A stretch of 64,000 nucleotides of DNA, taken from the NCBI GenBank assembly GCA_965242865.1, contig CBDETK010000013.1, positions 1,632,001-1,696,000 on the forward strand. Direction: 5' to 3'. The first letter of the stretch is position 1; each line of letters begins with the position of its first letter. This document shows, piece by piece, positions 48,215-64,000 of this stretch. The notes beneath the pieces are model-generated. The model ran no database searches, had not been told where the DNA came from, and saw nothing but the letters and a program-made list of their open reading frames with translations. The translations under genes and the position numbers were made by a program. This DNA comes from Candidatus Latescibacterota bacterium. Its GTDB lineage: Bacteria > Latescibacterota > UBA2968 > UBA8231.

Positions 48215-50365
48215 GTGTCCATTCCCTTCGTCCTTTTTGGCCTCCTGCTCATCGCTGCTAGCGCGTTTTCGGCCGACTGGCCTGCTTGGCGCGGCCCGGC
48301 GCAAACCGGCGTCTCCCAAGAAACCGGGCTCGTCGCCTCTTGGTCGCCGGTCTGGCGCGCCGAATTCACCGGCCGCTCAACCCCCATCGTCCTCAAGGGC
48401 CGGGTCTTTGTCATCGGCCGGCGCGGCGAGGGCATCGCCCGCGAGGGGGTCGTGGCCGCCTTTGACGCCCAAGACGGGGCCCTGCTCTGGGAACACCCCT
48501 ACAACATCTTCCACACCACCATCCCCTTCAATCGCGTCGGTTGGGCCAGCCTCACCGGCGACCCAGAGACCGGCTACGTCTATGCCCACACGGTCAGCGG
48601 GCTGTTCTTGTGCTTTGACCGCGATGGCCAAGTCGTCTGGTCGCGCTCGCTGACCGAGGAATTTGGGCGCATCTCCGGCTACGGCGGTCGCGTCCACACC
48701 CCGGTCGTCGATGAAGACCTCGTCATCATCAGCTATCTCAGCTCCAATTGGGGCGAGCACACCCCGGGCCGCCACCGCTACTTCGCCGTTGACAAGCGCA
48801 GCGGCGAAGTGGTCTGGATCGCCACCCCAGGGGGCCGGCCGCTCGACACCACGTACTCGGTGCCGGTCGTCGCCGTCATCAACGGCGTCCGCCTGCTCAT
48901 CGGCGGCAATGCCGACGGTGCTATCTACGCGCTAAAAATCCGCACGGGCGAGGCGGTGTGGGGCTTTAAGCTCAGTCGGCGCGGCATCAACTCCTCGGTC
49001 GTGGTGGCCGGCGACAAGGTGTACGCGGCCCACAGCGAGGAAAACCTCGACAACACCGCCCTCGGCCGCGTCGTGTGCATCAATGCCACCGGCCAAGGCG
49101 ACGTCACCAACACCCACGAGGTCTGGCGTTACGACGGCATCTTTGCCGGTTATAGCAGCCCAATCGTCCACGACGGTCGCTTGTACCTCATCGACAATTC
49201 GGCCAACATCCACGCGCTCGCCGCCGAGACCGGCCAACTACACTGGATCCACAACATCGGCACTGTCGGCAAAGGGTCGCCCGTGCTGGCCGACGGCCGG
49301 CTCTACGCGCCCGAGGTCAACGGTCGCTTCGCGATCGTCGCCCCGCGCCATGCCGACGCTGAGACGCTCGACCTCGCCGAAATTGCCATGCCCGACGGCC
49401 GGCCGGCCGAGCTGTTCGGCTCACCCGCCATAGCCGACGGCCGCATCTACCTTGCAACAGAAGCGGGCCTGTACTGCCTCGGCGACCCCGCGACGCCGTT
49501 CCAAGTCACAGCGACCGGGGCCAGCTACCCGCGCGACCCAGCCCCTCCAAACGCAACCCCGGCGCACCTGCAAATCATTCCCGCCGAAGTAGTGGCCCAG
49601 CCCAAGGCCCGCGTGTCTTTCCGCGCTCAAGCCTTCGACGCGCAGGGCCGCCTGATCGGCCCGGTCGCCGCCCAATGGGTGCTCACCGGCCCGGTCGGCC
49701 AACTCGACGACAACGTGCTCGCCCTCGCGGATGCACCCGGCGGCGGCACAATCACCGCCCGCACCAGCGCATTGACCGCCCAAGCGCGCATTGCCGTGCT
49801 GCCTCCGCCGACCTACCGCGAAGACTTTGAGGGATTCGCCGACGGGGCCTCGCCGGCTTGGATCGGCACGGGCAGCAAATTCAAGGTGGGCGAAGTCGCC
49901 GGCAACAAGGTGTTGGTCAAGCCGCCGGCCGCGCGCGGCTTGCACCGTGCCAACACGTATTTCGGTGCGCCCGACATGGCCGGCTACACCCTCCAAGCCG
50001 ACCTGCTCGGCGCCAAGAAGCGCCGCGCCGTCCCCGACATGGGGCTGATTGCCCAGCGCTACACCCTCGACCTAATGGGCTACCACCAGCAGTTGCAGAT
50101 CCGCACTTGGGCCGCCGAACTGCGCATGGCCCAAACCGTTCCCTTCGCCTTTGAGCCTGACGTCTGGTACACCATGAAGATGCAGGTGGCGATCGAAGGC
50201 GAGGTGGCCCATATCCGCGGCAAGGTCTGGCCCCGCGACGAATCGGAGCCCGCTCGCTGGACCATCCAAGCGGTCGATCCGCGGCCCAACCGCAGCGGCA
50301 GCCCCGGCCTCTACGGCTATTCTCCCGCTGAAATCTACTACGACAACCTGAAAGTTTGGCCATGA
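48215..50365 (+). CDS. Secreted PQQ-like/BamB-type beta-propeller + Ig-like + jelly-roll domain protein
   Basis: GTG start with GAGG RBS; signal peptide then ADWPAWRGP; repeated D..TG...W and SSP blades; QIIPAEV Ig-like segment; YREDFE...WYTMK...GKVWP...G.PGLYG...YYDNLKV tail. Confidence 0.85.
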   Translation: MSIPFVLFGLLLIAASAFSADWPAWRGPAQTGVSQETGLVASWSPVWRAEFTGRSTPIVLKGRVFVIGRRGEGIAREGVVAAFDAQDGALLWEHPYNIFHTTIPFNRVGWASLTGDPETGYVYAHTVSGLFLCFDRDGQVVWSRSLTEEFGRISGYGGRVHTPVVDEDLVIISYLSSNWGEHTPGRHRYFAVDKRSGEVVWIATPGGRPLDTTYSVPVVAVINGVRLLIGGNADGAIYALKIRTGEAVWGFKLSRRGINSSVVVAGDKVYAAHSEENLDNTALGRVVCINATGQGDVTNTHEVWRYDGIFAGYSSPIVHDGRLYLIDNSANIHALAAETGQLHWIHNIGTVGKGSPVLADGRLYAPEVNGRFAIVAPRHADAETLDLAEIAMPDGRPAELFGSPAIADGRIYLATEAGLYCLGDPATPFQVTATGASYPRDPAPPNATPAHLQIIPAEVVAQPKARVSFRAQAFDAQGRLIGPVAAQWVLTGPVGQLDDNVLALADAPGGGTITARTSALTAQARIAVLPPPTYREDFEGFADGASPAWIGTGSKFKVGEVAGNKVLVKPPAARGLHRANTYFGAPDMAGYTLQADLLGAKKRRAVPDMGLIAQRYTLDLMGYHQQLQIRTWAAELRMAQTVPFAFEPDVWYTMKMQVAIEGEVAHIRGKVWPRDESEPARWTIQAVDPRPNRSGSPGLYGYSPAEIYYDNLKVWP

Positions 50366-51786
50366 AAACGACAGCGCAACGCCTGATCCTCATCCTCGTC
50401 CTAACCGCTTCCGCGAGCGCCCAAACCGCCATGTGGGGCGGCTCGCCCGGGCGCAACCAAGCCTCGGGCGAGAAAAACCTGCCCACCGTTTGGGATGTCG
50501 AGACCGGGGCCAACGTCAAGTGGCGGGCCGCGCTCGGCTCGCAGACCTACGGCGGCCCCTTGATCGCTGGCGACAAAATTTTCGTCGGCACCAACAACCA
50601 AGCCGAGCGTGACCCCAGCCACCAAGGCGACCGGGGCGTGATCATGGCCTTTTCCTTAGAGGACGGCTCGTTCCTCTGGCAAATCGCCCATCCCAAGCTG
50701 CCGGCCGGCCGCGTCAACGACTGGCCTCAGCAGGGCGTTTGCTCCACCCCTTACATCGCTGGCGACCGCCTCTACTACGTCTCCAACCGCGCCGAAATCC
50801 TGTGCCTCGACACCGAGGGCTTTCGCGACGGCGAGAACGACGGCCCGATCACGGACGAACCCGCCACCGCGCCGACCAACGCGGATCTCATCTGGAAGTT
50901 CGACATGATCGCCGAGTTGGACGTCTTTCCCCACAACCTCGCGACCAGCTCGCCCCTCGGGGTGGATGGCCGGCTCTTCGCCTTGACCAGCAACGGCGTC
51001 GATGAGAGCCACATCCACATCCCCGCTCCCTTTGCCCCCAGCTTCATCGCCCTCGACCTGCAAACCGGCCACCTGCTCTGGGAGAGTGCCTTGCCCGGCG
51101 ACCGGATTCTGCACGGCCAATGGTCCAATCCCGCGTATGGCGAGGCCGCCGGCCGCCAGCAGGTAATTTTCCCCGGCGGCGACGGCTGGGTCTATGCCCT
51201 CGCCCCGGACACCGGCGAACTGATCTGGAAATTCGACTGCAACCCCAAGGAATCGGTCTGGGCCTTGGGCGGCCGCGGCACCCGCAACAACCTCGTCTCA
51301 ACCCCGGTCTTTCACGATGGCTTGGTCTATATCGGCGTCGGCCAAGACCCCGAGCACGGCGAGGGCGAAGGGCACCTGTGGGCCATTGACCCCAGCGGCA
51401 CCGGCGACATCACCGCGACCGGCGCGGTCTGGCACGTCGGCGGCAAAGCCTACAACCGCACCATCTCCACCGTGGCCATTGCCGATGGCCTGCTCTACGC
51501 CGCCGACCTGAGCGGCTTCGTCTATTGCCTCGACGCCAAGACCGGCGCCCACCACTGGACGCACGACACCTTGGCCGCAATCTGGGGCTCGCCCTTTGTC
51601 GCCGACGGCAAAATTTACATCGGCGACGAGGACGGCGATGTCGAGGTGCTCAAGGCCGGCAAAACGCTCACCGTGCTGCACGAGACCAATCTGGGCAGCG
51701 CCGTGTACACCACTCCGGTCGCCCGCGACGGCGTGCTCTACATTGCCTCGCGCAACACCCTCTTCGCCATCGCAGCGAGCCAATGA
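50362..51786 (+). CDS. Secreted PQQ-like/BamB-type beta-propeller protein
   Basis: ATGA overlap; signal peptide; MWGGSPGRN, NVKWRAALGSQTYGGP, multiple propeller blades. Confidence 0.88.
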   Translation: MKTTAQRLILILVLTASASAQTAMWGGSPGRNQASGEKNLPTVWDVETGANVKWRAALGSQTYGGPLIAGDKIFVGTNNQAERDPSHQGDRGVIMAFSLEDGSFLWQIAHPKLPAGRVNDWPQQGVCSTPYIAGDRLYYVSNRAEILCLDTEGFRDGENDGPITDEPATAPTNADLIWKFDMIAELDVFPHNLATSSPLGVDGRLFALTSNGVDESHIHIPAPFAPSFIALDLQTGHLLWESALPGDRILHGQWSNPAYGEAAGRQQVIFPGGDGWVYALAPDTGELIWKFDCNPKESVWALGGRGTRNNLVSTPVFHDGLVYIGVGQDPEHGEGEGHLWAIDPSGTGDITATGAVWHVGGKAYNRTISTVAIADGLLYAADLSGFVYCLDAKTGAHHWTHDTLAAIWGSPFVADGKIYIGDEDGDVEVLKAGKTLTVLHETNLGSAVYTTPVARDGVLYIASRNTLFAIAASQ

Positions 51787-52859
51787 GCGCTGCGCCCGAC
51801 GCCATCGCGGCCGCTCGCCACGCCCTTGACGCCCATGTCCGCGCCCTTGTCGAGTGGCACTTCAGCCCCGAGACCGGCTGTCCGTTTTGGCTTTCCCACG
51901 CCCAGCGGCTCGGCTTTGACCCACGCGAGCAAATTCGCTCCTACGCCGACTTGGCCCGGCTCGGCCACTTTGAGGACGAGTGGCTGCGCGGCGGCCCGGT
52001 GCGCCAGTGGGTGCCCAAAGCCTACGCGGACGAGCCGATCTACGTGTTTGAGACCGGCGGCTCAACCGGCCTGCCCAAATACCGCGTCAACATCCGCGAC
52101 TTCCAAACCGACTACGCGCTCTACAGCGAGAGCCTGTCTGAGGAGGGTTTCCCCAAGGGGGCCGACTGGCTGATGCTGGGGCCTTCGGGACCGCGCCGCC
52201 TGCGTCTGGCCATTGAATACTTGGCCCAGCACCGCGGCGGCTTGTGCTTCATGGTCGATCTCGACCCGCGCTGGGTCAACGAACTCATTCGCGCTGGCGA
52301 GATGCGTGCGCTGGAAGTCTATAAGGCTCATGTCGTCGATCAGGCGCTCAAAATCCTCAAGGCCCACGACAACGTGCAGTGCGTGTTCACCACCCCCCGG
52401 CTCCTCGAAGCCCTCTGCGAAAAAGTCTCCCTGCCCAAGCTGGGCATTAAGGGCGTCTTCTGCGGCGGCACGGAAATGAACGCCCAGTTCCATCGCTTCG
52501 CCCGCGAGGAGCTGGTGCCCGGCCTCGCCTTTGTGCCCACCTACGGCAACACCCTGATGGGCTTGGCCTGCCCCAAGCCCTTTGACCCGGCCGACGAGTA
52601 CGCCATCACGTATTACCCGCCGCAGCCCCGCGCCGTCATCGAGTTGGTCGATCCCCACGATCCCGCACGCAAGGTCGGCTACGGCGAGACCGGCCAAGTC
52701 ATGCTCACCACCCTGACCAAGGAGTTTTTCATGCCTCGCTTTCTCGAGCGCGACGAAGCCGAACGCGCCGCGCCCATCGCCGCGTATCCTTGGGACGGGG
52801 TCAAAGACCTGCGGCTGCTGACGGAGTTGCAGGAGGCCGTGGTGGTGGGAGTGTATTGA
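51783..52859 (+). CDS. GriC/EhpF-like truncated adenylate-forming enzyme (LuxE/phenylacetate-CoA ligase fold)
   Basis: ATGA overlap; WHFSPETGCPFWL, FETGGSTGLPK (A3/P-loop), GPSGP, DLDPRWV, FTTP, GGT, YGNTL, ERD; 358 aa, lacking the C-terminal ANL subdomain. Confidence 0.75.
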   Translation: MSAAPDAIAAARHALDAHVRALVEWHFSPETGCPFWLSHAQRLGFDPREQIRSYADLARLGHFEDEWLRGGPVRQWVPKAYADEPIYVFETGGSTGLPKYRVNIRDFQTDYALYSESLSEEGFPKGADWLMLGPSGPRRLRLAIEYLAQHRGGLCFMVDLDPRWVNELIRAGEMRALEVYKAHVVDQALKILKAHDNVQCVFTTPRLLEALCEKVSLPKLGIKGVFCGGTEMNAQFHRFAREELVPGLAFVPTYGNTLMGLACPKPFDPADEYAITYYPPQPRAVIELVDPHDPARKVGYGETGQVMLTTLTKEFFMPRFLERDEAERAAPIAAYPWDGVKDLRLLTELQEAVVVGVY

Positions 52860-52874
52860 AAGGAGTAAGTAAAG

Positions 52875-53150
52875 ATGGCCAGAGTTCAGTTAGTGATCCC
52901 CGACGAAGACCGCGACCGCTTCGTCCATCAGGCGCAGCGCGAAGGTATGACCTTGAGCGCGTGGCTCAGGGCCGCCGCCCGCCGACGGCTCGAAGAACAG
53001 CAGCAGTCCCACCCCTTCAAATCGCCAGCCGACCTTGAGAAATTCTTCAGTGCCTGCGACGCATTGGAAGGCCCTAGGCGAGAACCGGATTGGCAAGAAC
53101 ACTTGGCCGTCATCGACGAATCGCGAAAACGGAACGCATTCAAGACGTGA
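52875..53150 (+). CDS. RHH-type antitoxin (VapB-like)
   Basis: MARVQLVIPDEDRDRFVHQAQREGMTLSAWLRAAA; AAGGAG RBS; GTGA-coupled to a PIN gene. Confidence 0.78.
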   Translation: MARVQLVIPDEDRDRFVHQAQREGMTLSAWLRAAARRRLEEQQQSHPFKSPADLEKFFSACDALEGPRREPDWQEHLAVIDESRKRNAFKT

Positions 53151-53539
53151 TCTTTGTCGATACCAACATCTTCATGTACGCAGTGGGCCGACCGCATCCC
53201 CTCCGCGATCCAGCGCGGGAATTCTTCGCCGAATGCATCCGATCCCACACTTCTCTGTGTACATCGGCAGAGGTGCTGCAGGAGCTGGCCCATGCCTACC
53301 TGCCGGTTGCACGGGCGCAGACGCTCGATGCCGCCCTAGCACTGATAGCCAAGTCCCGCGTGGAGGTGTGGCCGCTAGAACAGGAGGATGTCACCCTAGC
53401 GCGGCAACTCCACGAACAGTATCCCACTGTAGGTGCCAGAGACCTATGCCACCTAGCTAGCTGCCGCCGACGCGGCGTGAACGAGATCCGGACCTTTGAT
53501 CAGGCCCTCAGAACCGTCGTCGGTTGGGCTGTAGGGTGA
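53147..53539 (+). CDS. vapC: VapC/PIN-domain toxin
   Basis: MIFVDTNIFMYAVG, TSAEVLQEL, ARDLCHLA, TFD: four acidic PIN residues. Confidence 0.9.
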   Translation: MIFVDTNIFMYAVGRPHPLRDPAREFFAECIRSHTSLCTSAEVLQELAHAYLPVARAQTLDAALALIAKSRVEVWPLEQEDVTLARQLHEQYPTVGARDLCHLASCRRRGVNEIRTFDQALRTVVGWAVG

Positions 53540-54936
53540 TGCACCTACCCCTCCTCCGCGCCGGCCAGCCCTACGCCAGCCTCGACCGCTTGGCCGTCGT
53601 CCACATCGCCACCGGCCAGCCTGTGGCGCAAGTCAGCCAAGCCAACCGCGGCCTAATCGTTCGCGACTTGGCCGCGCAAGAGCGCAATCGCCAAGCACTG
53701 CAAGCTCTCCCCGTCGCCGACTTGGTCGCCATCAGCCAACGCGCCGCCGACCTCTTCTCGCACGCCGAACTGCCTTTGGGCGACGACGGCCAAACCCCGG
53801 ACGACTACGTCGCGCAAGTCTCGGCCACGACCGGCCTGCCCCAGTCGCTGGCCCGCGCCAACATGGACAAAATCCACCGCGTCGGCGTTGAAATGCCCGC
53901 CGTGCTCAGCGGCCTAACCCGGGGCTTGGACCCGACCGTCCTCGACGACGGCCCCAGTGCGCTCCACTTCGTGCCCCATGCCCACGCCCTCGGCTGCATC
54001 CTACCGAGCAATTCGCCCGGCGTCCACGCGCTGTGGCTGCCGGCCATCGCGCTCAAGACCCCGCTGGTGCTCAAGCCGGGCCGCGAAGAGCCGTGGACGC
54101 CCTATCGCATCGCCCAAGCCCTGATCGCGGCGGGCTGTCCACCCCACGCCCTGAGCTACTACCCGACCGACCACGGCGGCAGCACCGAAATCCTACTCGG
54201 CTGCGGGCGGGTGCTGCTGTTTGGGGGCGGTTCCACTGTGGCCCCTTGGCGCGCCGACGCCCGCGTCCAACTGCACGGCCCAGGGCGCAGCAAAATTCTC
54301 ATCGGCGCGGACAAAATTGACCAGTGGGAGCACTACCTCGACCTCATGGTCGCCTCCATCGCCGCCAATGGGGGCCGCTCTTGCCTCAACGCCTCGGGCG
54401 TCTGGGTGCCCACGCACGGCCGCGAAATAGCCGCCGCCCTCGGCGAGCGTCTGAGCCAAATCGAGGCCCGTCCCCTCGACGACCCCCAAGCCCAAGTAGC
54501 CGCCTTCCCCAATCCCGCCGGCGCGCACCAACTCTCGGCCTCGATCGACGCCCAACTCGGCGACGCAGCCCAAGACACGGCCCGAGGCCGAAGCGAACGC
54601 ATCGCCGAGACCGGCGGCTGCACCTTCCTCAACCCGACTTTGCTCCACGTCCCCGACTGGCAACATCCGCTCGCCAACACCGAATACCTCTTTCCCTTTG
54701 CCGCGGTCGTCGAAGTTCCACCAAAAGAAATGGTCGCCCGCATCGGCCCGACGCTGGTAGCGACCGCGCTGACCGAGGACGAGGGCCTAACGCGCCAACT
54801 GCTCGCGGCTCCTCACATCGAGCGCCTCAACCTCGGTCCGATTCCCACCCACCAAATCGCTTGGGACCAGCCGCACGAGGGCAACCTCTTCGATTTCCTG
54901 TACCAACAACGCGCCTTGCAGTGCCGCACCGGATGA
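53539..54936 (+). CDS. GriD/EhpG-like aldehyde dehydrogenase-fold protein (putative acyl reductase)
   Basis: LPSNSPGVH, LKPGREEPWTPYR, LFGG, HGPGRSK (no ALDH general-base ELGG), GGRSCLNAS catalytic Cys, EYLFPF, PHEGNLFDFLY. Confidence 0.78.
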   Translation: MHLPLLRAGQPYASLDRLAVVHIATGQPVAQVSQANRGLIVRDLAAQERNRQALQALPVADLVAISQRAADLFSHAELPLGDDGQTPDDYVAQVSATTGLPQSLARANMDKIHRVGVEMPAVLSGLTRGLDPTVLDDGPSALHFVPHAHALGCILPSNSPGVHALWLPAIALKTPLVLKPGREEPWTPYRIAQALIAAGCPPHALSYYPTDHGGSTEILLGCGRVLLFGGGSTVAPWRADARVQLHGPGRSKILIGADKIDQWEHYLDLMVASIAANGGRSCLNASGVWVPTHGREIAAALGERLSQIEARPLDDPQAQVAAFPNPAGAHQLSASIDAQLGDAAQDTARGRSERIAETGGCTFLNPTLLHVPDWQHPLANTEYLFPFAAVVEVPPKEMVARIGPTLVATALTEDEGLTRQLLAAPHIERLNLGPIPTHQIAWDQPHEGNLFDFLYQQRALQCRTG

Positions 54937-56183: not shown

Positions 56184-56189
56184 ATGCTT

Positions 56190-56254
56190 GACAGTCGAGA
56201 GGTCTGACCACCTTGGACCGTGGAAGCTTGGTCTTCCCTTGACTGTCTTTTTTT
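56190..56254 (+). ncRNA. Candidate ~65-nt structured RNA with U-tract upstream of DUF3800
   Basis: GACAGUCGAG(56190-99) pairs with CUUGACUGUC(56238-47); inner stems GACCA/UGGUC and CUU/AAG; T7 run at 56248-54. Confidence 0.6.
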
Positions 56255-56270
56255 GTTTAGAGGAAAAATC

Positions 56271-56963
56271 GTGCATTTATTGTACGCTGACGAGTCTGGT
56301 TCACCAAAGGACCCCAACCAAAACTATTTGGCCCTAGCAGGGGTCTCTATCTTTGAAAGGCAAAGTTACTGGATTTCCAATAAGCTTGATGAAATAGCTG
56401 CCAGATTTGATCCAGCCAATCCAGACGAAGTTGAACTTCACGGTAGCCCAATGATCAATGGTAAGGGTATATGGAGGCGTTATCCAAAAGATAAAAGATT
56501 CAAGGCCGTTGAAGATATTTTACAGGTGCTTGCTGATTCACACATCTCTAATCGGATATTTGCCATTGCAATCAAGAAATCCTCTATATCACCTAAAAAT
56601 CCTGTCGAAACAGCCTTTGAACAATTATCTAGTCGTTTCGATTTGTACCTAATGAGACTTTACAAGAACAAAGATACCCAGAGAGGAATTATTATTTTTG
56701 ACAAATCAACTTATGAATCGTCGTTACAGGCATTGGCCACTAATTTCAGAACGATTGGTCATAGTTGGGGGGTGCTAAGAAACCTCGCTGAGGTTCCTTT
56801 ATTTTTGGATTCAAGGGCATCTAGACTAATACAGTTAGCAGACATAATCGCGTATGTTATTTTTCGCTACTATGAAAGGTCTGACAATCGGTTTTTCCCC
56901 ATCATAAAGAGTCGGTTTGATGCGGAAGGAGGCAATGTACACGGCCTACATGTAATTCAGTAA
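56271..56963 (+). CDS. DUF3800 domain protein (RNase H-like fold)
   Basis: GTG start with AGAGG RBS; LLYADESG, ELHGS, IIFD, DS...LIQLADIIAY; strongly AT-rich compared with flanks. Confidence 0.88.
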   Translation: MHLLYADESGSPKDPNQNYLALAGVSIFERQSYWISNKLDEIAARFDPANPDEVELHGSPMINGKGIWRRYPKDKRFKAVEDILQVLADSHISNRIFAIAIKKSSISPKNPVETAFEQLSSRFDLYLMRLYKNKDTQRGIIIFDKSTYESSLQALATNFRTIGHSWGVLRNLAEVPLFLDSRASRLIQLADIIAYVIFRYYERSDNRFFPIIKSRFDAEGGNVHGLHVIQ

Positions 56964-57011
56964 TTGCTTTGTCCTCTAAAGACGATGATTTCTAATTTAC
57001 TTTCCCCTAAT

Positions 57012-58100
57012 ATGCCACTCTACTTCCTAGCCCTTCTCCTATTCACCACGGCCGCGGCCGACACTTGGAACACCTTTCGCGGCAATCCCCAACTCACTGG
57101 CGTCGCCGCCTCCAACCTCGTCCCACCGCTAACGCTGCTTTGGGCCTACTCCACCCAAGACGCGATTGAATCCACCGCTGCCATTTGCGAGGGCCGGGTG
57201 TACGTCGGCTCGCTCGATGGCCAGCTCTATGCACTCGATTTGCACACCGGCGCGCTAGTATGGCAGTACCAAGCCGACGGCGAGATCAAGTCCTCCCCGA
57301 CCGTGGCCGACAGCACCGTGTACTTCGGCGACGAAGCCGGCACCTTCCACGCGGTCGCCACCCAGAGCGGTCGCCGCCGCTGGACTTTCGCCGCCGCCGC
57401 GGGCATCACCTCCTCGGCCAATTACGCCGACGGCCGGCTCTACTTTGGCAGCTATGACCAGCACCTGTACTGCCTCGATGCCGCGGCCGGGACCTTGATT
57501 TGGAAAACCGCCACTGAGGGATATATTCACAGTACGCCGGTGCTGTACGAAAATCGCGTGGCCGTGGCCGGTTGCGATGGATACTTGCGGCTTTTGGACC
57601 GCGCCGACGGTTCGCAGCACCAGCAGCTCGCGCTGGGCGGGTACGCGGCCTCCAGCGTCGCTGTTCACGCGGGCCGTGCGTACCTAGGCACCTTTGGCAA
57701 CGAAGTGCTAGGCGTTGATTTGGGCGCGGGAAAAATCGGCTGGCGCTACGCTCATGCGGTGCGGAAATTTCCGTTTTACTCGTCGCCGGCCGTTGCCGAC
57801 CACGCCCTCGTCATTGGCGGCCGGGACAAGCTCGTCCACGCCCTCGACCCGCAAACCGGCCAACCCTTGTGGACCGGTGCCGCGGGAGCGCGGGTGGATT
57901 CATCGCCGGTCATTGCCGGCGAATACGTGTACGTAGGAGCCAATGCGCTCGTCGCGCTCGCACTCGCATCGGGCGCAGAGGTCTGGCGCTTTGAAACGGG
58001 CGCGGCCCTCGCGGCGTCGCCAGCTATCGCCGCCGGTCGGCTCGTCATTGGGGCCGCCGATGGGGTGCTGTATTGTTTCGGGAGCGCGAGCACCCAGTGA
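57012..58100 (+). CDS. Secreted PQQ-like/BamB-type beta-propeller protein
   Basis: Signal peptide; WNTFRGNPQLTG; about eight regular blades (ESTAAI, KSSPTV, TSSANY, HSTPVL, YSSPAV, DSSPVI, AASPAI). Confidence 0.9.
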   Translation: MPLYFLALLLFTTAAADTWNTFRGNPQLTGVAASNLVPPLTLLWAYSTQDAIESTAAICEGRVYVGSLDGQLYALDLHTGALVWQYQADGEIKSSPTVADSTVYFGDEAGTFHAVATQSGRRRWTFAAAAGITSSANYADGRLYFGSYDQHLYCLDAAAGTLIWKTATEGYIHSTPVLYENRVAVAGCDGYLRLLDRADGSQHQQLALGGYAASSVAVHAGRAYLGTFGNEVLGVDLGAGKIGWRYAHAVRKFPFYSSPAVADHALVIGGRDKLVHALDPQTGQPLWTGAAGARVDSSPVIAGEYVYVGANALVALALASGAEVWRFETGAALAASPAIAAGRLVIGAADGVLYCFGSASTQ

Positions 58101-59332
58101 CCCCCGGCAGAATCCGCTACGTCCTGTCCTATGTCGGCGGCAATGCGTTGTTGTTCGCCTTGACTTGGGTGTTCATCGCCGGGATCGGCGAAGTCTGGTT
58201 GCGACTGCAGTGGCCTTTCGCGCATAAGAGTCGGCCCTGGCACTTTGTCCCGAAGATGGGCCGTATGCTCAAACCCAACGCGGAAGTGCATGAGACGAAC
58301 CACTTTGACTTCTGGACCGTCTCGCGCACCAACAGCTGGGGTTTTCTCGACCGCGAACCCATCGCTCCCGAACGCGCCGCGTCAAGCTGCCATATCGCCC
58401 TGATCGGCGATTCCTTCGTCGCTGCCCGCCAAGTGCCCATTGCCGATAAATCGCACATTCGGCTCGAAGCACTCGCTGCCCGGGTGCTGCCCGAACTAGA
58501 CGTTACTACCTCGGCATTTGGGATCGGCAACACCGGCCAGCTCAACCAACTGCCGTTGTACGACGAATTTGCCCAGCGGTTGCGTCCCAAACTGCTGGTG
58601 CTCGTCTTTGTGTCAAACGACTTCGCAGACAACTCCTCGGTCTTGAAGAGCCTGCTATATGAATGGGACCCAGACCGGATACCGTGGGTGTCCGCTCAAC
58701 GAGACGCAGATGGCCGTATGAGGCTGCTGCCGCCTGATCCCAACTGGCGGGTGCAGCGGCCCCCGGCCAAGAGGACCCCCCAATACCTCACGAGGCGCAC
58801 GCTGCAGCTTGCGTCTCGGCGATCTTGGTTCGCGACTTGGTTGAATGCCACGCTCATCAGGCTCGGGGTGTTGTACTCGCTCGACGCGGCGGAAGAGTTG
58901 CGCCGGCGTCCCGGCTATGAAGCGTTGCTGGGCGGCTGGCAACCCAAGACAGGGCAGCGCATAGATTTGATGTTCAATGAAAAGGACCTGCCGCCATTTT
59001 TTGAGGCGGCCTTGGCCTTCACCGCCTTCGGCTTGGATCAATTCAAGGAACGCGCCGACCGCGATGGGGTGTCGTTAGTGATCTTGTCCACCCACACGAT
59101 GGGAAGCCGAGGCGACCCGGCCTTTGACCGCCTGACCGCCTTGGCCACCGCGCAGGGCATTCCCGTCATTGACCAGACCGACTATATCCGCCGCCAAGGT
59201 GCCAAGCGCAAGGATGCACATTGGCGGCTCGACCCTCATTGGAACGCGGCTGGCCACCAGTGGGCAGCCGAAGCCGTGCTCGAATACCTCAAGCGGAACC
59301 CAGCGGTCTGCCGGGCGTCCGCATCGCGCTGA
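58097..59332 (+). CDS. Membrane-anchored SGNH/GDSL hydrolase-like protein (AlgX/AlgJ-like)
   Basis: GTGA overlap; N-terminal TM ending EVWLRL; IALIGDSFV, FVSND, DPHWNAAGH. Confidence 0.8.
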   Translation: MTPGRIRYVLSYVGGNALLFALTWVFIAGIGEVWLRLQWPFAHKSRPWHFVPKMGRMLKPNAEVHETNHFDFWTVSRTNSWGFLDREPIAPERAASSCHIALIGDSFVAARQVPIADKSHIRLEALAARVLPELDVTTSAFGIGNTGQLNQLPLYDEFAQRLRPKLLVLVFVSNDFADNSSVLKSLLYEWDPDRIPWVSAQRDADGRMRLLPPDPNWRVQRPPAKRTPQYLTRRTLQLASRRSWFATWLNATLIRLGVLYSLDAAEELRRRPGYEALLGGWQPKTGQRIDLMFNEKDLPPFFEAALAFTAFGLDQFKERADRDGVSLVILSTHTMGSRGDPAFDRLTALATAQGIPVIDQTDYIRRQGAKRKDAHWRLDPHWNAAGHQWAAEAVLEYLKRNPAVCRASASR

Positions 59333-59386
59333 TTGCAACCTGAACGGCCTCTTTCCCATACCCTAGATTATCGCTAAACTTTTTCT

Positions 59387-60718
59387 ATGAATAAGAACGA
59401 CCCGGCCACCACGCGCGCCGACCGCACCGAAACCGAGGTCGGCAGTGTTTTTGTTTCCAACTATCCGGCCTATTCGTTTTGGGGCGAAGCGGACATCCCA
59501 CAGGCGCACCGCGCCCTCGCCGCCCCACCGCGCCCCAACACTCAGCTCGGCCTCTACCTCCACATTCCCTTCTGCCGCAAGCGCTGCAAGTTTTGCTACT
59601 TCCGCGTTTATACCGACAAAAACAGCGAGCAGATCCAAACCTATCTCGACGCCCTCGCCCGCGAGGTGGAACACTACGCCCAGCAGCCGGCGGTCCAGGA
59701 CCGGCCCCTGCACTTTATCTACTTTGGCGGCGGCACCCCCTCCTATATCAGCTCGCGCCACCTGCGCTCCTTAGTCGAGCGTCTCAAGGACGCCCTGCCT
59801 TGGGACCGCGCCGACGAAATCGCCTTTGAGTGCGAGCCGGGGACGCTGACCCAAGCCAAATTGGCAACTATCCGCAGCATCGGCGTTAGCCGCCTCAGTC
59901 TAGGGATTGAAAACCTCGACGACGAGATTTTGCGCCACAACGGCCGCGCCCACGTCAGCCGGGAAATTTACCAAGTCATGCCCTGGATCCACGCGCTCGA
60001 CTTCGAGCAGGTCAACGTCGATCTGATCGCCGGCATGGTCGGCGAGACCTGGGCGAGCTGGCGGCAGACCGTGCAAAAGACCATCGCGCTCAACCCGGAC
60101 AGCGTCACCGTCTATCAGATGGAGTTGCCCTACAACACGCTCTATTCCAGGGACTTGCTCGCGGGCGACGGCGAGCCGCTGGCCTTGGCCGACTGGAAAA
60201 CCAAGCGCGCCTATCACGCCTATGCGTTTGAGCAATTGGCCGCGGCTGGGTACGGGCGTTCGAGTGCCTACACCATGCAGAGAACGCCCGACGCCCGCTT
60301 CGCGTACCGCGACGCTGTGTGGACCGGCCAAGACCTAATCGGCGCGGGCGTTGCCTCCTTTTCCCATCTGAGCGGAGTTCACTATCAAAACGCGCCGCAC
60401 TGGGACGCGTACCTCGCCGCCATCCACCGCGGCGACCTCCCCATTCACCGCGCCTTTGCCACCGACCGCGAAGAGCAACTGACCCGCGAGGTGATTTTGC
60501 AGCTCAAGTTAGGCGCGCTGGAGCCCGCGTATTTTCGCGCCAAATTCGGGGTCGATATCGTCGCCCACTTTGCCGCGGCACTCAGCAGTCTGCGCGACGA
60601 AGGCATGCTCCAGTTCGATGCGACCTCCATCGCCCTGACCGACGAGGGCCTCATGCGCGTCGATCAGCTGCTGCCCGACTTGTACCAAACCAAATACCGC
60701 AACGCACGCTATACCTGA
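59387..60718 (+). CDS. HemN-like radical SAM enzyme
   Basis: LYLHIPFCRKRCKFCYF (CxxxCxxC), YFGGGTPS, ECEPG, RLSLG, NVDLIAG, HemN_C-like tail. Confidence 0.9.
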   Translation: MNKNDPATTRADRTETEVGSVFVSNYPAYSFWGEADIPQAHRALAAPPRPNTQLGLYLHIPFCRKRCKFCYFRVYTDKNSEQIQTYLDALAREVEHYAQQPAVQDRPLHFIYFGGGTPSYISSRHLRSLVERLKDALPWDRADEIAFECEPGTLTQAKLATIRSIGVSRLSLGIENLDDEILRHNGRAHVSREIYQVMPWIHALDFEQVNVDLIAGMVGETWASWRQTVQKTIALNPDSVTVYQMELPYNTLYSRDLLAGDGEPLALADWKTKRAYHAYAFEQLAAAGYGRSSAYTMQRTPDARFAYRDAVWTGQDLIGAGVASFSHLSGVHYQNAPHWDAYLAAIHRGDLPIHRAFATDREEQLTREVILQLKLGALEPAYFRAKFGVDIVAHFAAALSSLRDEGMLQFDATSIALTDEGLMRVDQLLPDLYQTKYRNARYT

Positions 60719-60728
60719 AGGAGGGACC

Positions 60729-61976
60729 ATGAAAAACGCGATCGCACTGCTGCTGCTCTCAACCGCCGTGGCCCAAGCGGCCGACTGGCCCCAGTGGCGC
60801 GGCCCCCAGCGCGACGGCATTTCCAGCGAAACCGGCCTTTTCACCACCGAGCGCCCTTTTGCCGAAGCATGGCGCGGCCCCCTCGGTCCGGGCTTTTCTG
60901 GCATCGCCGTTGCCGATGGCCGGGCCTTCACCCTGTTCGCCCACGGGGACGACGAGTTTGCGGTCTGCCTCGACGCCCAAACCGGCGAGGAACGCTGGCG
61001 CTTCCGCACCGGCCCGTACTACACTGAAACCCAAGGCGGCGATGGCCCGCGCTCAACGCCCACGGTCGATGGCGAGATCGTCTATGTGCTCGGTGCTCAC
61101 GGCCAGCTCTACGCCCTAGCGGCCGCCAGCGGCACCACGGTGTGGCAAAAGGACTTGGTCGCCGAGTTTGGCAGCAAAATGCCGCGGTGGGGGTTTAGTG
61201 CTTCCCCATTAGTTGAGGGCGATTTGCTCCTAATCGAAGCCGGCGGACGCAGCGGCAACTTCCTCGACTCCCTCACCGAAATGGTCGTCGATCGCCCGGT
61301 ACCCGCCACCGTCATCGCGTTCGACAAGGCCACCGGCCAAACCGCTTGGACCGCGCTCGACGACAAGATGGGGTACTCGTCGCCCATCGCCTTTACGGCC
61401 GGCGGTCAGCGCCAACTCGCCTTCTTTACCGGCTACGCCCTGACCGGCTTGGCCCCGGCCGACGGCCAGACCCTCTGGACGCATCCTTGGAAGACAGCTC
61501 ACGACATCAACGTCGCCACTCCGATCTTCATCCCGCCCAATCGCGTCTTTATCTCCTCGGGCTATGACAAGGGGGCCACGGTCTTGCAGATCGGCCCGAA
61601 CGCAGCGGTCGAGGAAATCTGGCGCAACAAAAAGATGAAGAACCAATTTTCCACCTGTGTGTACTACCAAGACCATCTCTACGGGTTTGACAAGACCATC
61701 CTCAAGTGCATTGACGCCCGCACCGGCGAGGAAAAGTGGAAGGCCCGAGGCTACGGCAACGGCACCCTAATCGCGGCCGACGGCCACCTCATCGTATTGG
61801 GCGAACAAGGCAATCTCGGCCTAGCCGAAGCCACGCCCGCCGGCTTCGACGTCAAGGTCAACTACCCCGCCTTACATGGCCGCTGCTGGACGGCCCCTTC
61901 GCTGGCCAATGGCCGCCTCTATATGCGCGACGAAAGGGAAATCGCCTGCCTCCAGATCCAAGGGGCGGCCCAATGA
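60729..61976 (+). CDS. Secreted PQQ-like/BamB-type beta-propeller protein
   Basis: AAGGAGG RBS; signal peptide then ADWPQWRGPQRDG; GPRSTPTV, WGFSASPLV, GYSSPI, CWTAPSL. Confidence 0.9.
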   Translation: MKNAIALLLLSTAVAQAADWPQWRGPQRDGISSETGLFTTERPFAEAWRGPLGPGFSGIAVADGRAFTLFAHGDDEFAVCLDAQTGEERWRFRTGPYYTETQGGDGPRSTPTVDGEIVYVLGAHGQLYALAAASGTTVWQKDLVAEFGSKMPRWGFSASPLVEGDLLLIEAGGRSGNFLDSLTEMVVDRPVPATVIAFDKATGQTAWTALDDKMGYSSPIAFTAGGQRQLAFFTGYALTGLAPADGQTLWTHPWKTAHDINVATPIFIPPNRVFISSGYDKGATVLQIGPNAAVEEIWRNKKMKNQFSTCVYYQDHLYGFDKTILKCIDARTGEEKWKARGYGNGTLIAADGHLIVLGEQGNLGLAEATPAGFDVKVNYPALHGRCWTAPSLANGRLYMRDEREIACLQIQGAAQ

Positions 61977-64000
61977 GGCATATCCGTGGTGCGTTGTGGG
62001 TCTTTGCGGTGTCGCTTACTACGACGCTGGCCCATGCCCAGCGCACGGCCGACTCCCTCCACGTCGTCGGCGAGACCATCGTCACGGGCGCGCGGCTGGC
62101 CATCCCCCGCGCCAACGCCATTGCCACCAAGATGCCGCTGCCCCTGCACAAAACCCCCTTGAGCGTCGGCATCGTCACCCAAGCCCAGATCGAAGCGCAG
62201 GATGGCGCGACACTCGGCGACGCGCTGGCCAACGTCAGTGGCGTTGGCGTCCACACCAACTTCGGCGTCCACGACCTGTTTTACCTGCGCGGCTTTGACT
62301 CGCTCGCCAACGGCTTGGTGCTCTCCGACGGAGCACCTGAACCCGAAGCGACCTTCTATCAGCTTTACAACGTAGCCCGCGTTGAGGCCCTCAAAGGGCC
62401 GGGGGCCTTCCTCTACGGCGGCAATCCCCTGTCGGGCACGATCAACCTCGTCCGCAAGCGGCCGGTTCCGGCCAGCCCTTTCGCCCGGATCAACGCCTCG
62501 GTCGGGAGCTTCTCCACTTACCGCGCTACCCTCGATGTGGGCCGCCCGGGGTGGCGCGTCAACGCTCTGTGGCAGGACTCGGAAGGCTACCGCGACGGCA
62601 AAGACAGTTCGATTCTCGCCGTAAACCCGACGCTGCGGCTGGACCTCGGCGCACGAGCGACCCTGCACCTCGACTTCGAGTACTTGACGAGCGAACACCG
62701 CTCGGACTCGGGGCTGCCCATCGTCAACGGCGCATTGCCCGACGTGCCGCGCACCCGCTCCTACCAGTCGCCCTTTGACCGCTCCTCTCAGGCCATCCAG
62801 CGCGCCCGCGCCGATTGGGAGTGGCACCTAACGCCTAATTTTACGGTGCGCGACAAACTCTACTACACCCACCTCGACTGGCCCTCGCAGGGCACCCTCT
62901 TCAACGGGGCTTTCCCCAATGCCGCTGGTTCGCTCGACCTCGCCCGCAGCTTGCTCGATCTCGACGACCAGCAGCGGATTGTCGGCAACCAACTCGAAGG
63001 GCTGCTCGCACTGCACACCGGCGGCATTGAGCACCAGCTCCTCTTGGGCGTGGAGATCGCCCACCACACAGACGACTTCACGCTCGACATGGCCTTGCTT
63101 TCGCAGGTCGATCTGTTCACCCTCAACGCGACGTTGCCGCCGAATTTGGCCGCCTCCATGTCGGCCGATTCCCTCCGGGTCCCCCTCCCCGACCAAGCGA
63201 CAGCCGGTCAGACCGCGGCGCAACTGCTGGCCCCCTACGTCGTCGATCGCATCATCGTCAGCCCGCACTTTGAGCTGTTGCTCGGAGGCCGCTTCGACTG
63301 GATTGACTACGAGGACGATCGCACCGCGACCCAGCGCGATTACCGACAGGTCAGCCCCATGTTCGGCGCGGTCTTTGCTCCGAGCCAAGCCCTTTCGCTA
63401 TACGTCAACGCGGGCCGCGCTTTTGCCGCGCCTTCCGCGCAAGTCGTCGGCGACCGCGCGCCCGAGGAAAGCACCCAATACGAAATCGGCGTCAAAGCCG
63501 CGCTGCTCAACGGCCACCTCAACCTCAACGGCGCGGTCTTTACCCTCGACAAAGAGCGCATCGCCATCCCGGACGACAACGGGATCACCCAGCAACTCGG
63601 CAACCAACGCGCTCGGGGCTTGGAGTTGGAACTGGCCGCGCAACGGTCCACATGGTACGCCCAAGGCACCTATACCTATCTAGACGCCGAGCTGACGCGC
63701 TTTAGCGAATCCGTATTCGTCCCCACCGCCGAGGGCTTCGTCCCCCAAGTATTCGACCGCACGGGCAACGCACCGGCCTTCGCGCCCGAGCACCTTTTGA
63801 CCCTGTGGGCGGCCCGCGACATGGGCAACTTCACCGTGGCCGCTGGCCTCCGCTACGTCGGCCGCCAATTCGTGGCCGAGGACAATGTCTATGCGATCGA
63901 CGGCGCGCTGACGCTCGACTGTGGGCTGACCTACCGGCAGGGGCCGGGACAGCTGCGGCTCAACCTCAAGAACGCAACCGGCCGCGCATACGAGACCCGC
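61973..64000 (+). CDS. TonB-dependent receptor (siderophore-receptor-like), 3' truncated by window edge; absent from the ORF track
   Basis: ATGA overlap; MRHIRGALWVFAVSLTTTLAHA signal; ETIVTG TonB box; TPLSVGIVT, LRGF, RVEALKGP...LYGG...GTINLV plug; QYEIGVK and RARGLELE barrel strands; same frame at the window end. Confidence 0.9.
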   Translation, partial: MRHIRGALWVFAVSLTTTLAHAQRTADSLHVVGETIVTGARLAIPRANAIATKMPLPLHKTPLSVGIVTQAQIEAQDGATLGDALANVSGVGVHTNFGVHDLFYLRGFDSLANGLVLSDGAPEPEATFYQLYNVARVEALKGPGAFLYGGNPLSGTINLVRKRPVPASPFARINASVGSFSTYRATLDVGRPGWRVNALWQDSEGYRDGKDSSILAVNPTLRLDLGARATLHLDFEYLTSEHRSDSGLPIVNGALPDVPRTRSYQSPFDRSSQAIQRARADWEWHLTPNFTVRDKLYYTHLDWPSQGTLFNGAFPNAAGSLDLARSLLDLDDQQRIVGNQLEGLLALHTGGIEHQLLLGVEIAHHTDDFTLDMALLSQVDLFTLNATLPPNLAASMSADSLRVPLPDQATAGQTAAQLLAPYVVDRIIVSPHFELLLGGRFDWIDYEDDRTATQRDYRQVSPMFGAVFAPSQALSLYVNAGRAFAAPSAQVVGDRAPEESTQYEIGVKAALLNGHLNLNGAVFTLDKERIAIPDDNGITQQLGNQRARGLELELAAQRSTWYAQGTYTYLDAELTRFSESVFVPTAEGFVPQVFDRTGNAPAFAPEHLLTLWAARDMGNFTVAAGLRYVGRQFVAEDNVYAIDGALTLDCGLTYRQGPGQLRLNLKNATGRAYETR

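Follow-up and report, generated by a model that had tools for sequence, protein, structure and literature searches.

Gene content of the locus

The window analyzed here is a stretch of 64,000 nucleotides from a Candidatus Latescibacterota bacterium (assembly GCA_965242865.1, contig CBDETK010000013.1, positions 1,632,001 to 1,696,000 of the forward strand). Its end, from 48215 to 64000, carries thirteen genes, all on the plus strand and in the same direction, that include a short adenylating enzyme (adenylase) and its aldehyde dehydrogenase (ALDH)-fold partner, a HemN-like radical S-adenosylmethionine enzyme (rSAM), four exported propeller proteins of the PQQ_2 family (prop1 to prop4) and a TonB-dependent receptor (TBDR). 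A preliminary description of the window had regarded these genes as an undescribed pathway that reduces and radical-modifies an aromatic or heterocyclic acid, with a product that could serve the propellers as a cofactor or ligand. The present analysis found that the window genes are the front two-thirds of one larger co-inherited system. This system is real, widespread and strongly co-inherited.

The genes were identified by open reading frame calls and by scans against Pfam (threshold E 0.01) and NCBIfam. For 13 of 13 genes, the results agree with the positions, order and identities given in the preliminary description. The features are as follows.

48135..48170, plus strand: sigma-70-type promoter (TTGACA at 48141-48146, TATGTA at 48165-48170, spacer N18)
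48215..50365, plus strand: prop1, exported, 716 amino acids (aa) (Pfam PQQ_2 1.1e-34)
50356/50362..51786, plus strand: prop2, exported 8-bladed PQQ_2 propeller, 476 aa (Pfam PQQ_2)
51783..52859, plus strand: short EhpF/GriC-type adenylase, 358 aa (Pfam AMP-binding, 32.8 bits only)
52875..53150, plus strand: ribbon-helix-helix (RHH) antitoxin-like gene (Pfam RHH_5, weak)
53090..53539, plus strand: PIN (VapC) toxin gene (Pfam PIN 6.1e-19)
53539..54936, plus strand: EhpG/GriD-type ALDH-fold partner (Pfam Aldedh; homology to EhpG-type partners)
54933..56060, plus strand: iron-type alcohol dehydrogenase (Fe-ADH) (Pfam Fe-ADH 2.2e-42, ADH_Fe_C 2.3e-37)
56220..56963, plus strand: DUF3800 gene (Pfam 9.8e-18)
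56964..58100, plus strand: prop3, exported PQQ_2/ACSF4-type propeller (Beta-prop_ACSF4 205.2 bits, cut-off 133)
58073..59332, plus strand: membrane-anchored SGNH/AlgX-like hydrolase or acyltransferase (Pfam ALGX 1.6e-08, weak GDSL matches)
59387..60718, plus strand: HemN-like rSAM (Pfam Radical_SAM 2.1e-20, HemN_C 2.6e-09)
60729..61976, plus strand: prop4, exported PQQ_2 propeller (Pfam PQQ_2 3.9e-33)
61973..64000, plus strand, continuing 72 bases beyond the window end: TBDR (TIGR01783; Plug and barrel domains)

Coordinates and translations show four-base ATGA overlaps between prop1 and prop2, prop2 and the adenylase, the ALDH-fold gene and Fe-ADH, and prop4 and the TBDR. The chaining of genes by such overlaps, as claimed earlier, holds for these four pairs within the window.

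Co-inheritance across phyla

A comparison with one genome per species gave at least 578 related loci, and the best 80 were compared. They come from Latescibacterota, Poribacteria, Acidobacteriota, Planctomycetota, Calditrichia and a few metagenome-assembled genomes (MAGs) labelled Gemmatimonadota or Clostridia. The Acidobacteriota records other than MAGs are Sulfidibacter corallicola M133 (complete genome, L065) and 'Acidobacteria bacterium Mor1' (L063). The recurrent order, with members that vary given in parentheses, is (paaK)-prop1-prop2-adenylase-ALDH-(Fe-ADH)-prop3-rSAM-(prop4)-TBDR-(paaK)-halogenase-(importer)-GT4. Next to the adenylase, a prop2 orthologue is found in 41 of the 80 loci and an ALDH-like gene in 46, many of the other loci being cut by contig ends. 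Synteny across phyla had been suggested as a check on the preliminary description, and the order was found in at least five phyla; such recurrence in separate phyla puts the arrangement far beyond what chance would produce.

Presence and absence were then counted in 151 evenly sampled genomes from the window's phylum.

Adenylase: 83 of 151 genomes
prop2: 82 of 151 genomes, and 82 of the 83 adenylase-positive ones
rSAM: 82 of 151 genomes, and 81 of the 83 adenylase-positive ones
Halogenase: 81 of 151 genomes, and 81 of the 83 adenylase-positive ones
FtsX permease: 88 of 151 genomes, and 82 of the 83 adenylase-positive ones

The permease matches in six adenylase-negative genomes reach only 33-37% identity, and one adenylase-negative genome (G089, 81% complete) has the rSAM gene. 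The mismatched genomes are 81-86% complete, except for G132 (96%), which has no permease match. Three families carry the system (38/63, 27/30 and 17/19 genomes), and eleven other families do not (0/38). The first of these families, f1, is patchy between genera, with 0 of 8 genomes in genus g7 and 5 of 9 in genus g6; such patchiness within one family indicates that the system is accessory and not housekeeping.

In a second sample of 201 Acidobacteriota, in which a halogenase match was accepted at a threshold of E 1e-90, the adenylase is present in 53 genomes, all 53 of which have prop2 and 45 of which have the halogenase. Among the 148 adenylase-negative genomes, prop2 is found in five and the halogenase in three, all three with prop2. 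When G296 and G204, which are flagged as unpublished, are left out, the counts are 51/51 for prop2 and 43/51 for the halogenase. Joint presence and absence are consistent at the family, genus and within-genus level.

Physical linkage is not needed for this pattern. The prop1-prop2 pair lies 1.2 Mb from the other system genes in G098, the rSAM gene is far from the adenylase in G083, G124 and G055, the prop2 orthologue of the L049 genome lies outside its 21-kb locus, and in many single-contig Acidobacteriota the adenylase, prop2 and halogenase are megabases apart. Co-occurrence of the enzymes with the propellers had been set beforehand as the test that could refute the pathway, and it was found in 82/83 and 53/53 genomes even where the genes are unlinked. 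The system is co-inherited as a unit.

Genes beyond the window

Directly after the TBDR, and joined to it by a GTGA overlap, lies a gene for a PaaK-like ligase (PDB match to PaaK, 2.5e-52), whose NCBIfam matches to PaaK, FlxY and BagE/FevW are all below their cut-offs. A flavin-dependent halogenase follows, again with a GTGA overlap. In the PDB, it matches halogenases with E-values between 2.5e-62 and 4e-50, among them ChlB4, a Bmp2-type enzyme, CndH, PltA and CmlS. Variant B halogenases are defined by the motifs GxGxxG, WxWxIP and Fx.Px.Sx.G and by a conserved Lys; the present enzyme reads GGGPAGS, WFWYIP and FLDPMYSSG, with K69 in FPRKHS (aligned to FPKKYG/FPKKFG) at the position of the Lys that the aligned halogenases conserve. 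On these motifs, it is assigned to the phenol/pyrrole (Bmp2/PltA/CndH) variant B type. The presence of a ligase and a halogenase past the window end makes an aromatic substrate more likely.

Downstream of the halogenase are a Na+/solute symporter and a family 4 glycosyltransferase (GT4). The GT4 (L082:7327-8610) has an unusual CGSC (CxxC) motif near its N terminus, MYCGSCIHDN, and is above no curated family cut-off, the best being EpsE with 106 bits versus 400. The importer for the inner membrane is an SSF symporter in the window's genome and in L049 and L060 but a TRAP (TAXI-TRAP) system in L063.

Many Acidobacteriota have, after the adenylase, its partner and an orthologous GT4 (45-51% identity), genes for an ABC ATPase and a giant double-FtsX permease of the MacB type. 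The window's genome has a 42%-identical orthologue of this permease, which stands beside an ATPase, a 4HBT thioesterase and a fifth PQQ_2 propeller. Here the permease lies ~40 kb past the halogenase and about 35-37 kb past GT4, compared to 4-12 kb past the halogenase in relatives. The inserted DNA between GT4 and the exporter (G000:C13:1701611-1736982; L082 and L092) encodes a SusC-like receptor accompanied by two unknown 700-aa genes, a pair of enolase-superfamily genes, an ankyrin protein, an AbiEii-like ATPase and a PhyH dioxygenase, together with a DNA methylase and its HNH/MTaX1 partner (a restriction-modification pair). An exporter of the MacB type points to an exported product.

A class of gene clusters with similar content has been listed before. 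Loureiro et al. (bioRxiv 10.64898/2026.08.03.742642) named a 'Halo_AMP' pseudoclass of orphan clusters in sponge microbiomes, which combine a flavin-dependent halogenase with an AMP-binding ligase. These clusters are reported there from Latescibacterota, Poribacteria and Acidobacteriota, with BagE-like ligases, Bmp2-like halogenases and frequent PQQ-like, TonB, toxin-antitoxin, glycosyltransferase and radical SAM genes. The class likely overlaps with the system described here. Of the 20 groups that it defines, however, the preprint pursues another member, CC A, which has P450s; the term 'carboxylic acid reductase' was not found in the preprint text as available, and the Results as available report neither co-inheritance with propellers nor occurrence outside sponge and seawater samples. 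The earlier statement that the pathway is undescribed needs qualifying, as similar orphan clusters are listed in the 2026 preprint. What is new here is the co-inheritance in two phyla, the link to an exporter in this genome and the conservation of one face of prop2.

In one alternative explanation, the genes form an orphan specialized-metabolite cluster that makes a halogenated aromatic compound for defense or signaling in sponge and soil, with the propellers, TBDR and symporter as accessory genes for self-protection or sensing. The halogenase, class-C-like rSAM, ligase, glycosyltransferase and thioesterase are typical tailoring enzymes, the distribution is patchy at the genus level (38/63 in f1; 0/38 in the eleven other families), and the same preprint groups clusters of a halogenase and an AMP-ligase as candidate biosynthetic gene clusters. 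However, there is no scaffold synthase, and the system is single-copy, of the same order in at least five phyla and unusually conserved. Its import genes belong to the conserved set, accessory genes would not be expected to be co-retained as strictly as the periplasmic propellers are, and the system is also common in MAGs of Acidobacteriota and Planctomycetota that do not come from sponges. This explanation is considered unlikely, though it retains some weight.

A putative two-protein carboxylate reductase

The adenylase and its partner had been claimed to resemble the GriC/GriD reductase. In a PDB search (3l2k/3hgu), adenylase residues 13-358 aligned to residues 18-366 of EhpF (3l2k) with E 7.5e-46, and Pfam found the AMP-binding core only, with no AMP-binding_C (ANL C-terminal) domain. 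The phosphate-binding loop ETGGSTGLPK occupies residues 90-99, in which all 24 of the 24 orthologues keep G92, G93, T95, G96, P98 and K99. This motif, a second adenylase motif, WHFSPETGCPFW, and the RSCLN motif of the partner, all quoted in the preliminary description, are present in the translations. All 8000 of the 8000 database candidates scored for the adenylase are homologues, the best 120 being 73-92% identical to it. The orthologue group is 62-95% identical across phyla and 62-77% identical between phyla.

The ALDH-fold partner is 33% identical (E 5e-38) to the ALDH-family gene product encoded beside an EhpF-like gene in a phenazine-type cluster on a Burkholderia ubonensis plasmid. It is 31% identical (E 3e-37) to its counterpart on a Streptomyces plasmid, where the EhpF-like neighbor gene is annotated as 'phenazine biosynthesis protein'. 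The best solved canonical ALDH reached 7.7e-11 in the PDB. As had been noted, the protein keeps the catalytic Cys (Cys282) and lacks the ELGG-type Glu. At the Glu position of the canonical ALDH KauB it has His246 (LHGPGRSK versus LEAGGKSP), and the general-base Glu position is Arg in both outgroup partners (Burkholderia and Streptomyces). None of the 24 orthologues departs from Cys282, His246 or the oxyanion Asn158, and the His stands in the motif HGPGxSK. The ALDH-fold gene stands directly beside the adenylase in the compact loci L010, L042, L063 and L070. Since the adenylase matches EhpF and the partner is closer to EhpG-type proteins than to ordinary ALDHs, the pair is, by homology, a two-protein carboxylate reductase of the EhpF/EhpG (GriC/GriD) type.

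Compared to known systems of this kind, the pair shows both likenesses and differences. EhpF/EhpG are proposed to act as such a reductase in the griseoluteate pathway. The EhpF/EhpG system of Pantoea agglomerans (D-alanylgriseoluteic acid, a phenazine) has the same short one-domain ANL architecture, with an end-to-end match to the adenylase. Partners from phenazine-type clusters share the GPGRSKIL and GG.xC.NA motifs with the ALDH-fold partner, and the window adenylase is 35-39% identical to plasmid-borne family members of phenazine-type and other clusters. In contrast, the propellers, TBDR, halogenase, rSAM, GT4 and MacB exporter have no counterpart in the phenazine pathway. Likewise, LuxE/LuxC, a fatty-acid reductase, follows the same logic as the window pair, with a short adenylating enzyme and an ALDH-fold thioester reductase that lacks the hydrolytic glutamate. 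However, neither protein has a LuxE or LuxC family match (the adenylase matches AMP-binding only and the partner Aldedh only, Pfam at E 0.01), and nothing in the window cluster points toward fatty acids. Finally, GriC/GriD of the grixazone pathway in Streptomyces griseus has the same two-protein logic, a likeness that is by description and via homologues; Streptomyces homologues annotated as 'arylcarboxylate reductase' are 35-37% identical to the window adenylase. In that system, the AMP-binding protein forms an acyl-AMP, which GriD reduces to the aldehyde (PMC10179220, citing Suzuki et al. 2007). The genes ehpF and ehpG of the phenazine pathway are named in gene tables of PMC11278526. Among the matches listed for literature on EhpF/EhpG, GriC/GriD, 'arylcarboxylate reductase' and 'LuxC-like', there was no paper on this conserved clade.

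The preliminary description had seen no phenazine or aminohydroxybenzoate scaffold genes in the window, and the same holds beyond it: neither PhzF nor a GriH-type DHQS-II gene was found in the whole genome, which is 93.6% complete, with positive controls. The acid is thus neither a phenazine nor 3-amino-4-hydroxybenzoic acid (3,4-AHBA) made by the known route.

Two further ideas about the reductase were rejected. In the first, the reductase and Fe-ADH would supply a fatty alcohol for ether lipids through an AGPS-like enzyme. The distribution of this gene differs from that of the cluster, as it is present in 109 of 151 genomes, including the cluster-free genera g7 (8/8), g2 (2/2) and g3 (2/2), and in genus g6 it is present in 9/9 genomes versus 5/9 for the cluster. 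In the second, database rows with an 'open frame 833-835 aa' suggested fused adenylases; they are not fusions, as a stop codon follows the adenylase. Longer forms in 16 proteins (15 singletons and one with 3 members) include adenylase+ALDH, adenylase+ALDH+Fe-ADH and PQQ_2 fusions. The one inspected was garbled in the manner of compensating frameshifts, and the longer forms were not counted as evidence.

The radical SAM enzyme

The rSAM has the CxxxCxxC cluster motif, a GGGTP stretch and a HemN_C domain. Its NCBIfam scores are 200.9 bits for hemN (cut-off 324.95), 148.2 for HemW (cut-off 205.4), 200.1 for HutW and 190.7 for STM4012, which place it below every HemN, HemW, HutW and HemZ cut-off and about equally close to HemN, ChuW/HutW and the STM4012 family. 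A separate true HemW is encoded elsewhere in the genome (267.8 bits versus the cut-off of 205.4, compared to 148.6 for the cluster gene). Grouping with true HemN or HemW had been named as an observation that would count against the pathway; with scores below the cut-offs and a HemW of its own in the genome, the enzyme does not group in this way. Its sequence CRKRCKFCYF has Phe at the fourth-Cys position of the HemN motif, and we take the fourth Cys of CX3CX2CXC to mark HemN proper. The enzyme is thus classed, by its scores and motif, as a HemN-like paralogue distinct from HemN, HemW and HutW. In the PDB, it matches HemN (5.5e-34) and NocN, a class C radical SAM methylase (2e-26); that class is characterized by a HemN-like fold with a HemN_C domain and stands apart from HemN, HemW and HutW. 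A role as a methylase is plausible given the NocN match.

Exported propellers and the TonB-dependent receptor

All four propellers begin with a hydrophobic, cleavable-looking signal, as does the TBDR when read from the ATG at 61973; no lipobox was noticed in the propeller signals (all read by eye). Prop1 is modeled (pLDDT 89) as an N-terminal 8-bladed PQQ_2 propeller (~residues 20-430) followed by two all-beta domains. The fold matches of its propeller are YxaL (Z 37.8), BamB (Z 35.0) and Rv3035 (Z 32.8), the two beta-rich C-terminal domains not being resolved by the fold search. Orthologues of prop1 are 39-89% identical in 27 loci, those of prop3 45-85% in 14 loci and those of prop4 35-62%. 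Prop2 is modeled as an 8-bladed propeller (pLDDT 87, pTM 0.88) with BamB as its best fold match (E 4.8e-23, TMq 0.62), followed by tetrathionate hydrolase and, lower, quinoprotein dehydrogenases. For both prop1 and prop2, these are generic matches to 8-bladed propellers only, and a prop2 search of the ESM Atlas returned only PQQ_2 clusters of its own kind.

By family cut-offs, the propellers are classed as neither BamB nor PQQ-dependent dehydrogenases. The four score 44.7-149.6 bits against BamB TIGR03300 (cut-off 285.2) and 31-72 bits against the quinoprotein family TIGR03075 (cut-off 480), and their propeller parts are 378-476 aa versus ~550-600 aa for quinoproteins. BamB, YxaL and Rv3035 have the same fold and size as prop1 and prop2. 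However, sequence identity is only 14-21%, and the window system differs in comprising four or five distinct paralogous families that are co-inherited with enzymes and in the conserved polar face of prop2. The preliminary description had proposed to check whether the enzymes track an expansion of the propeller family. This genome encodes ~10 PQQ_2 proteins, five of them in the system, and the expansion is not large.

Prop2 is the best conserved propeller, with a mean column identity of 61% in a 26-sequence alignment. Its invariant polar and aromatic residues are unevenly distributed, with 32 on the D-A and B-C loops versus 3 on the A-B and C-D loops (26 orthologues, 172 versus 79 loop residues, Fisher p 0.0014). 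In the usual propeller topology, the D-A and B-C loops form one face around the central channel. The 32 residues include several His, Asp, Glu and Asn residues, Trp residues and one Cys. Invariant polar residues on one face suggest a pocket, and, in the modeled structure, this face suggests a ligand or active site and not a generic scaffold surface.

Two alternative explanations center on the propellers. In the first, which was the idea of the preliminary description, a small aromatic molecule, built or remodeled by the cytoplasmic enzymes, is exported and then loaded onto the propellers, the real effectors, as their cofactor or tight ligand, and the TBDR and symporter salvage the cofactor or a precursor, much as PqqU salvages PQQ in E. 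coli. The propellers and enzymes are co-inherited even when unlinked, the exporter belongs to the system, and the invariant His/Asp/Glu/Asn/Trp/Cys residues of prop2 lie on one pocket-like face. Because the propellers carry Sec-type signals, as read by eye, any cofactor would be loaded outside the cytoplasm. Enzymes with PQQ-like propellers that are free of a cofactor exist, and one of them, tetrathionate hydrolase, is among the fold matches. On the other hand, the propellers are of BamB size (378-476 aa) and closer to BamB, YxaL and Rv3035 than to quinoprotein dehydrogenases, redox cofactors are not known to be halogenated or glycosylated, and a single cofactor for five propeller families is an extra assumption. 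A genome search for PqqC gave no match with a control that was itself silent, so that absence of PqqC is not shown. This explanation is rather doubtful.

In the second, the system makes an aromatic glycoconjugate or glycolipid for the cell envelope, which is extracted by the MacB-type machine and placed by BamB-/Rv3035-like propeller scaffolds. The reductase, GT4, ABC ATPase and double-FtsX permease form a compact core in many Acidobacteriota, and the best fold matches of prop1 and prop2 include the non-enzymatic scaffolds BamB and Rv3035, the latter in complex with FecB. Arabinofuranosyltransferase activity and the integrity of the envelope are reportedly supported by the Rv3035-FecB complex (PMC13041763), and the Halo_AMP preprint (10.64898/2026.08.03.742642) notes matches to a protein from the glycolipid-exporter cassette of the bartoloside cluster. 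However, lipid-forming genes are lacking from the cluster and the ether-lipid link did not hold; envelope assembly leaves a siderophore-class TBDR and a solute importer without a function; and the polar pocket on one face of prop2 resembles a ligand or active site more than a surface on which a protein docks. Assembly of an envelope component is therefore judged quite improbable.

The TBDR has Plug and barrel domains and scores 229.4 bits against TIGR01783 (cut-off 223.5, NCBIfam). Its nearest solved structures are PiuA (2.5e-31), PiuD, FhuA and Fiu, and its orthologues are 41-67% identical. These matches assign it to the siderophore-receptor subfamily. A third explanation starts from import: a phenolic acid is taken up through the TBDR and symporter for detoxification or catabolism, the propellers pre-process it and the cytoplasmic enzymes transform it. 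The full import route is conserved (TBDR with SSF or TRAP), and carboxylates are the usual cargo of TRAP and SSF importers. The PDB describes PiuA, PiuD and Fiu as siderophore or catecholate siderophore receptors, and esterases recur beside the cluster. However, ATP-driven acid reduction, halogenation, radical SAM chemistry and glycosylation are anabolic and without energy yield, a dedicated exporter is co-inherited, and the cluster has no conserved ring-cleavage or beta-oxidation genes. Uptake for breakdown is thus very unlikely.

Inserts, promoter and neighboring genes

The vapBC pair, DUF3800 and SGNH genes of the window are lineage-specific inserts, and vapBC is not part of the system. In the locus comparison, the RHH/PIN pair between the reductase genes is present only in genus-level relatives, and neither the DUF3800 gene, which sits in a low-GC stretch (GC 0.527 over 56-58 kb), nor the SGNH/AlgX-like gene has a counterpart in any of the 80 related loci. 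The junction between the adenylase and ALDH genes (52860-53538 in the window) holds unrelated inserts in separate lineages (L004:11078-15519; L013:11057-12161; L025:11070-11477; L028:11097-12293). Besides vapBC in the window, the types found are a HAD hydrolase together with an opposite-strand second TBDR, a Vgb-lyase-like gene, a four-helix gene of the 23S-rRNA-IVP type and an ATPase with AAA_14/DUF4143. The junction behaves as an insertion hotspot within an otherwise conserved operon.

Fe-ADH is below all NCBIfam equivalog cut-offs and is missing from the compact clusters L010, L011 and L047; it is an accessory member, with a presumed role in the aldehyde-to-alcohol step. Esterases of unrelated kinds recur at the cluster, namely the SGNH protein of the window, a GDSL protein (L049:14016-14834) and, in one uncultured lineage, a fusion of the prop4 counterpart to a PF00756 'putative esterase' domain (L025:18462-20894). 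This recurrence hints at an ester bond in a periplasmic substrate. PhyH-family dioxygenases occur near the cluster in several lineages (L028:5423-6178, minus strand; L092:4145-4918, plus strand; L011, L022, L030, L054 and L059); they are only 26-36% identical and may be a loose accessory member or a coincidence.

In the promoter upstream of prop1, the -35 box and the core of the -10 box are invariant in 10 of 10 aligned relatives. An inverted repeat of 7 bp flanks the -35 box (CGCCAAT at 48135-48141 and ATTGGCG at 48150-48156). It measures 7-10 bp, with the consensus GCCGCCAATT-GACAAG-AATTGGCGGC in genus-level relatives, and in L002 an apparent compensating change affects both arms. The repeat may be an operator. 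No regulator gene lies within the cluster. A search of the window, L082, L010, L063 and L028 at Rfam gathering thresholds gave no match to a riboswitch or RNA leader.

Two groups of neighboring genes are recorded for completeness. Just upstream of the operon (44075-48103) is a run of small defense-like or toxin-antitoxin-like genes with a GC content of 0.575-0.58, comprising a DUF4258 gene (44075-44554), a TIR-domain protein (46150-46767), an unassigned 348-aa gene and a BrnA antitoxin (47852-48103). On the minus strand at 29652-35673 are three consecutive dynamin-family GTPase genes (692, 734 and 573 aa; GC 0.51-0.52), the first of which is fused to ankyrin repeats.

A proposed secretion and recapture cycle

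Our preferred reading, which we hold tentatively, is that the system makes a halogenated aromatic metabolite that is secreted and recaptured in a metallophore-like or redox-shuttle cycle. A model in which the molecule is made, exported, handled in the periplasm and recaptured uses all the parts, as the system includes synthesis enzymes, an exporter, periplasmic proteins and two importers. Such make-export-recapture logic is that of metallophores and redox shuttles. We infer the chemical steps, their order, the direction of transport and the shuttle logic; the parts themselves are given by the gene identities (through homology), gene order and co-inheritance set out above.

The cycle, which spans the cell envelope, would start from a small aromatic carboxylic acid. 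In the cytoplasm, the PaaK-like ligase would activate an aryl or arylacetyl acid and the flavin-dependent halogenase would halogenate the ring. The HemN-like rSAM would modify the molecule, most likely by class-C-type C-methylation. The EhpF-like adenylase and the Cys/His ALDH-fold partner would reduce the carboxylate to the aldehyde at the expense of ATP and NAD(P)H, and Fe-ADH, where its gene is present, would convert the aldehyde to the alcohol. The GT4 transferase would attach a sugar, after which the MacB-type ABC exporter would move the product out across the cytoplasmic membrane. In the periplasm, the four or five exported PQQ_2 propellers would bind or process the product. Finally, the siderophore-class TBDR and the Na+/solute symporter (TAXI-TRAP in one lineage) would return the product or its spent form.

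Several points weigh against this cycle. First, the cluster has no scaffold-forming enzyme (nonribosomal peptide synthetase, polyketide synthase or NRPS-independent siderophore synthetase) that would account for the acid. Second, no iron- or metal-responsive element was seen, although no Fur-box scan was made, and the only operator-like repeat is GC-rich; Fur boxes are AT-rich, and such a repeat does not look Fur-like. Third, few metallophores are halogenated and glycosylated, and siderophores are not usually imported by a symporter. Fourth, the identity of the adenylase between phyla (62-77%) is far above that usual for enzymes of specialized-metabolite pathways. Furthermore, 8 of 53 adenylase-positive Acidobacteriota have no halogenase match, which indicates that halogenation may not be obligatory, and, since genomes of one phylum share ancestry, counts of co-occurrence exaggerate how many independent events there were.

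Implications

The system is carried by 53 of 201 Acidobacteriota and 83 of 151 genomes in the window's phylum, that is, by about a quarter to half of the genomes sampled from two large and little-known phyla, and it is also present in Poribacteria, Planctomycetota and Calditrichia. The enzymes of the system show conservation like that of housekeeping proteins. The two-protein type of carboxylic acid reductase is rare, has so far been studied only in two antibiotic pathways and is now tied to exported PQQ-like propellers, the ligands of which have been a long-standing blank.

A more specific idea is that the product is an aromatic aldehyde or alcohol, halogenated or methylated and perhaps also glycosylated, that constitutes a cofactor new to science and is loaded on periplasmic propeller apo-enzymes after MacB-type export. 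This idea is unlikely; if true, it would define a new class of cofactor-dependent periplasmic enzymes in Acidobacteriota, Planctomycetota, Latescibacterota, Poribacteria and Calditrichota and would explain many of the 'empty' PQQ-like propellers in genomes without PQQ synthesis.

Co-inheritance turns a gene neighborhood into a functional unit that can be tested, and Sulfidibacter corallicola M133 provides a cultured carrier. Identification of the product, be it a metallophore, a redox shuttle, a cofactor or an envelope glycoconjugate, would assign a function to several large unannotated families and, in addition, explain what an orphan class of sponge-microbiome halogenase clusters is for.

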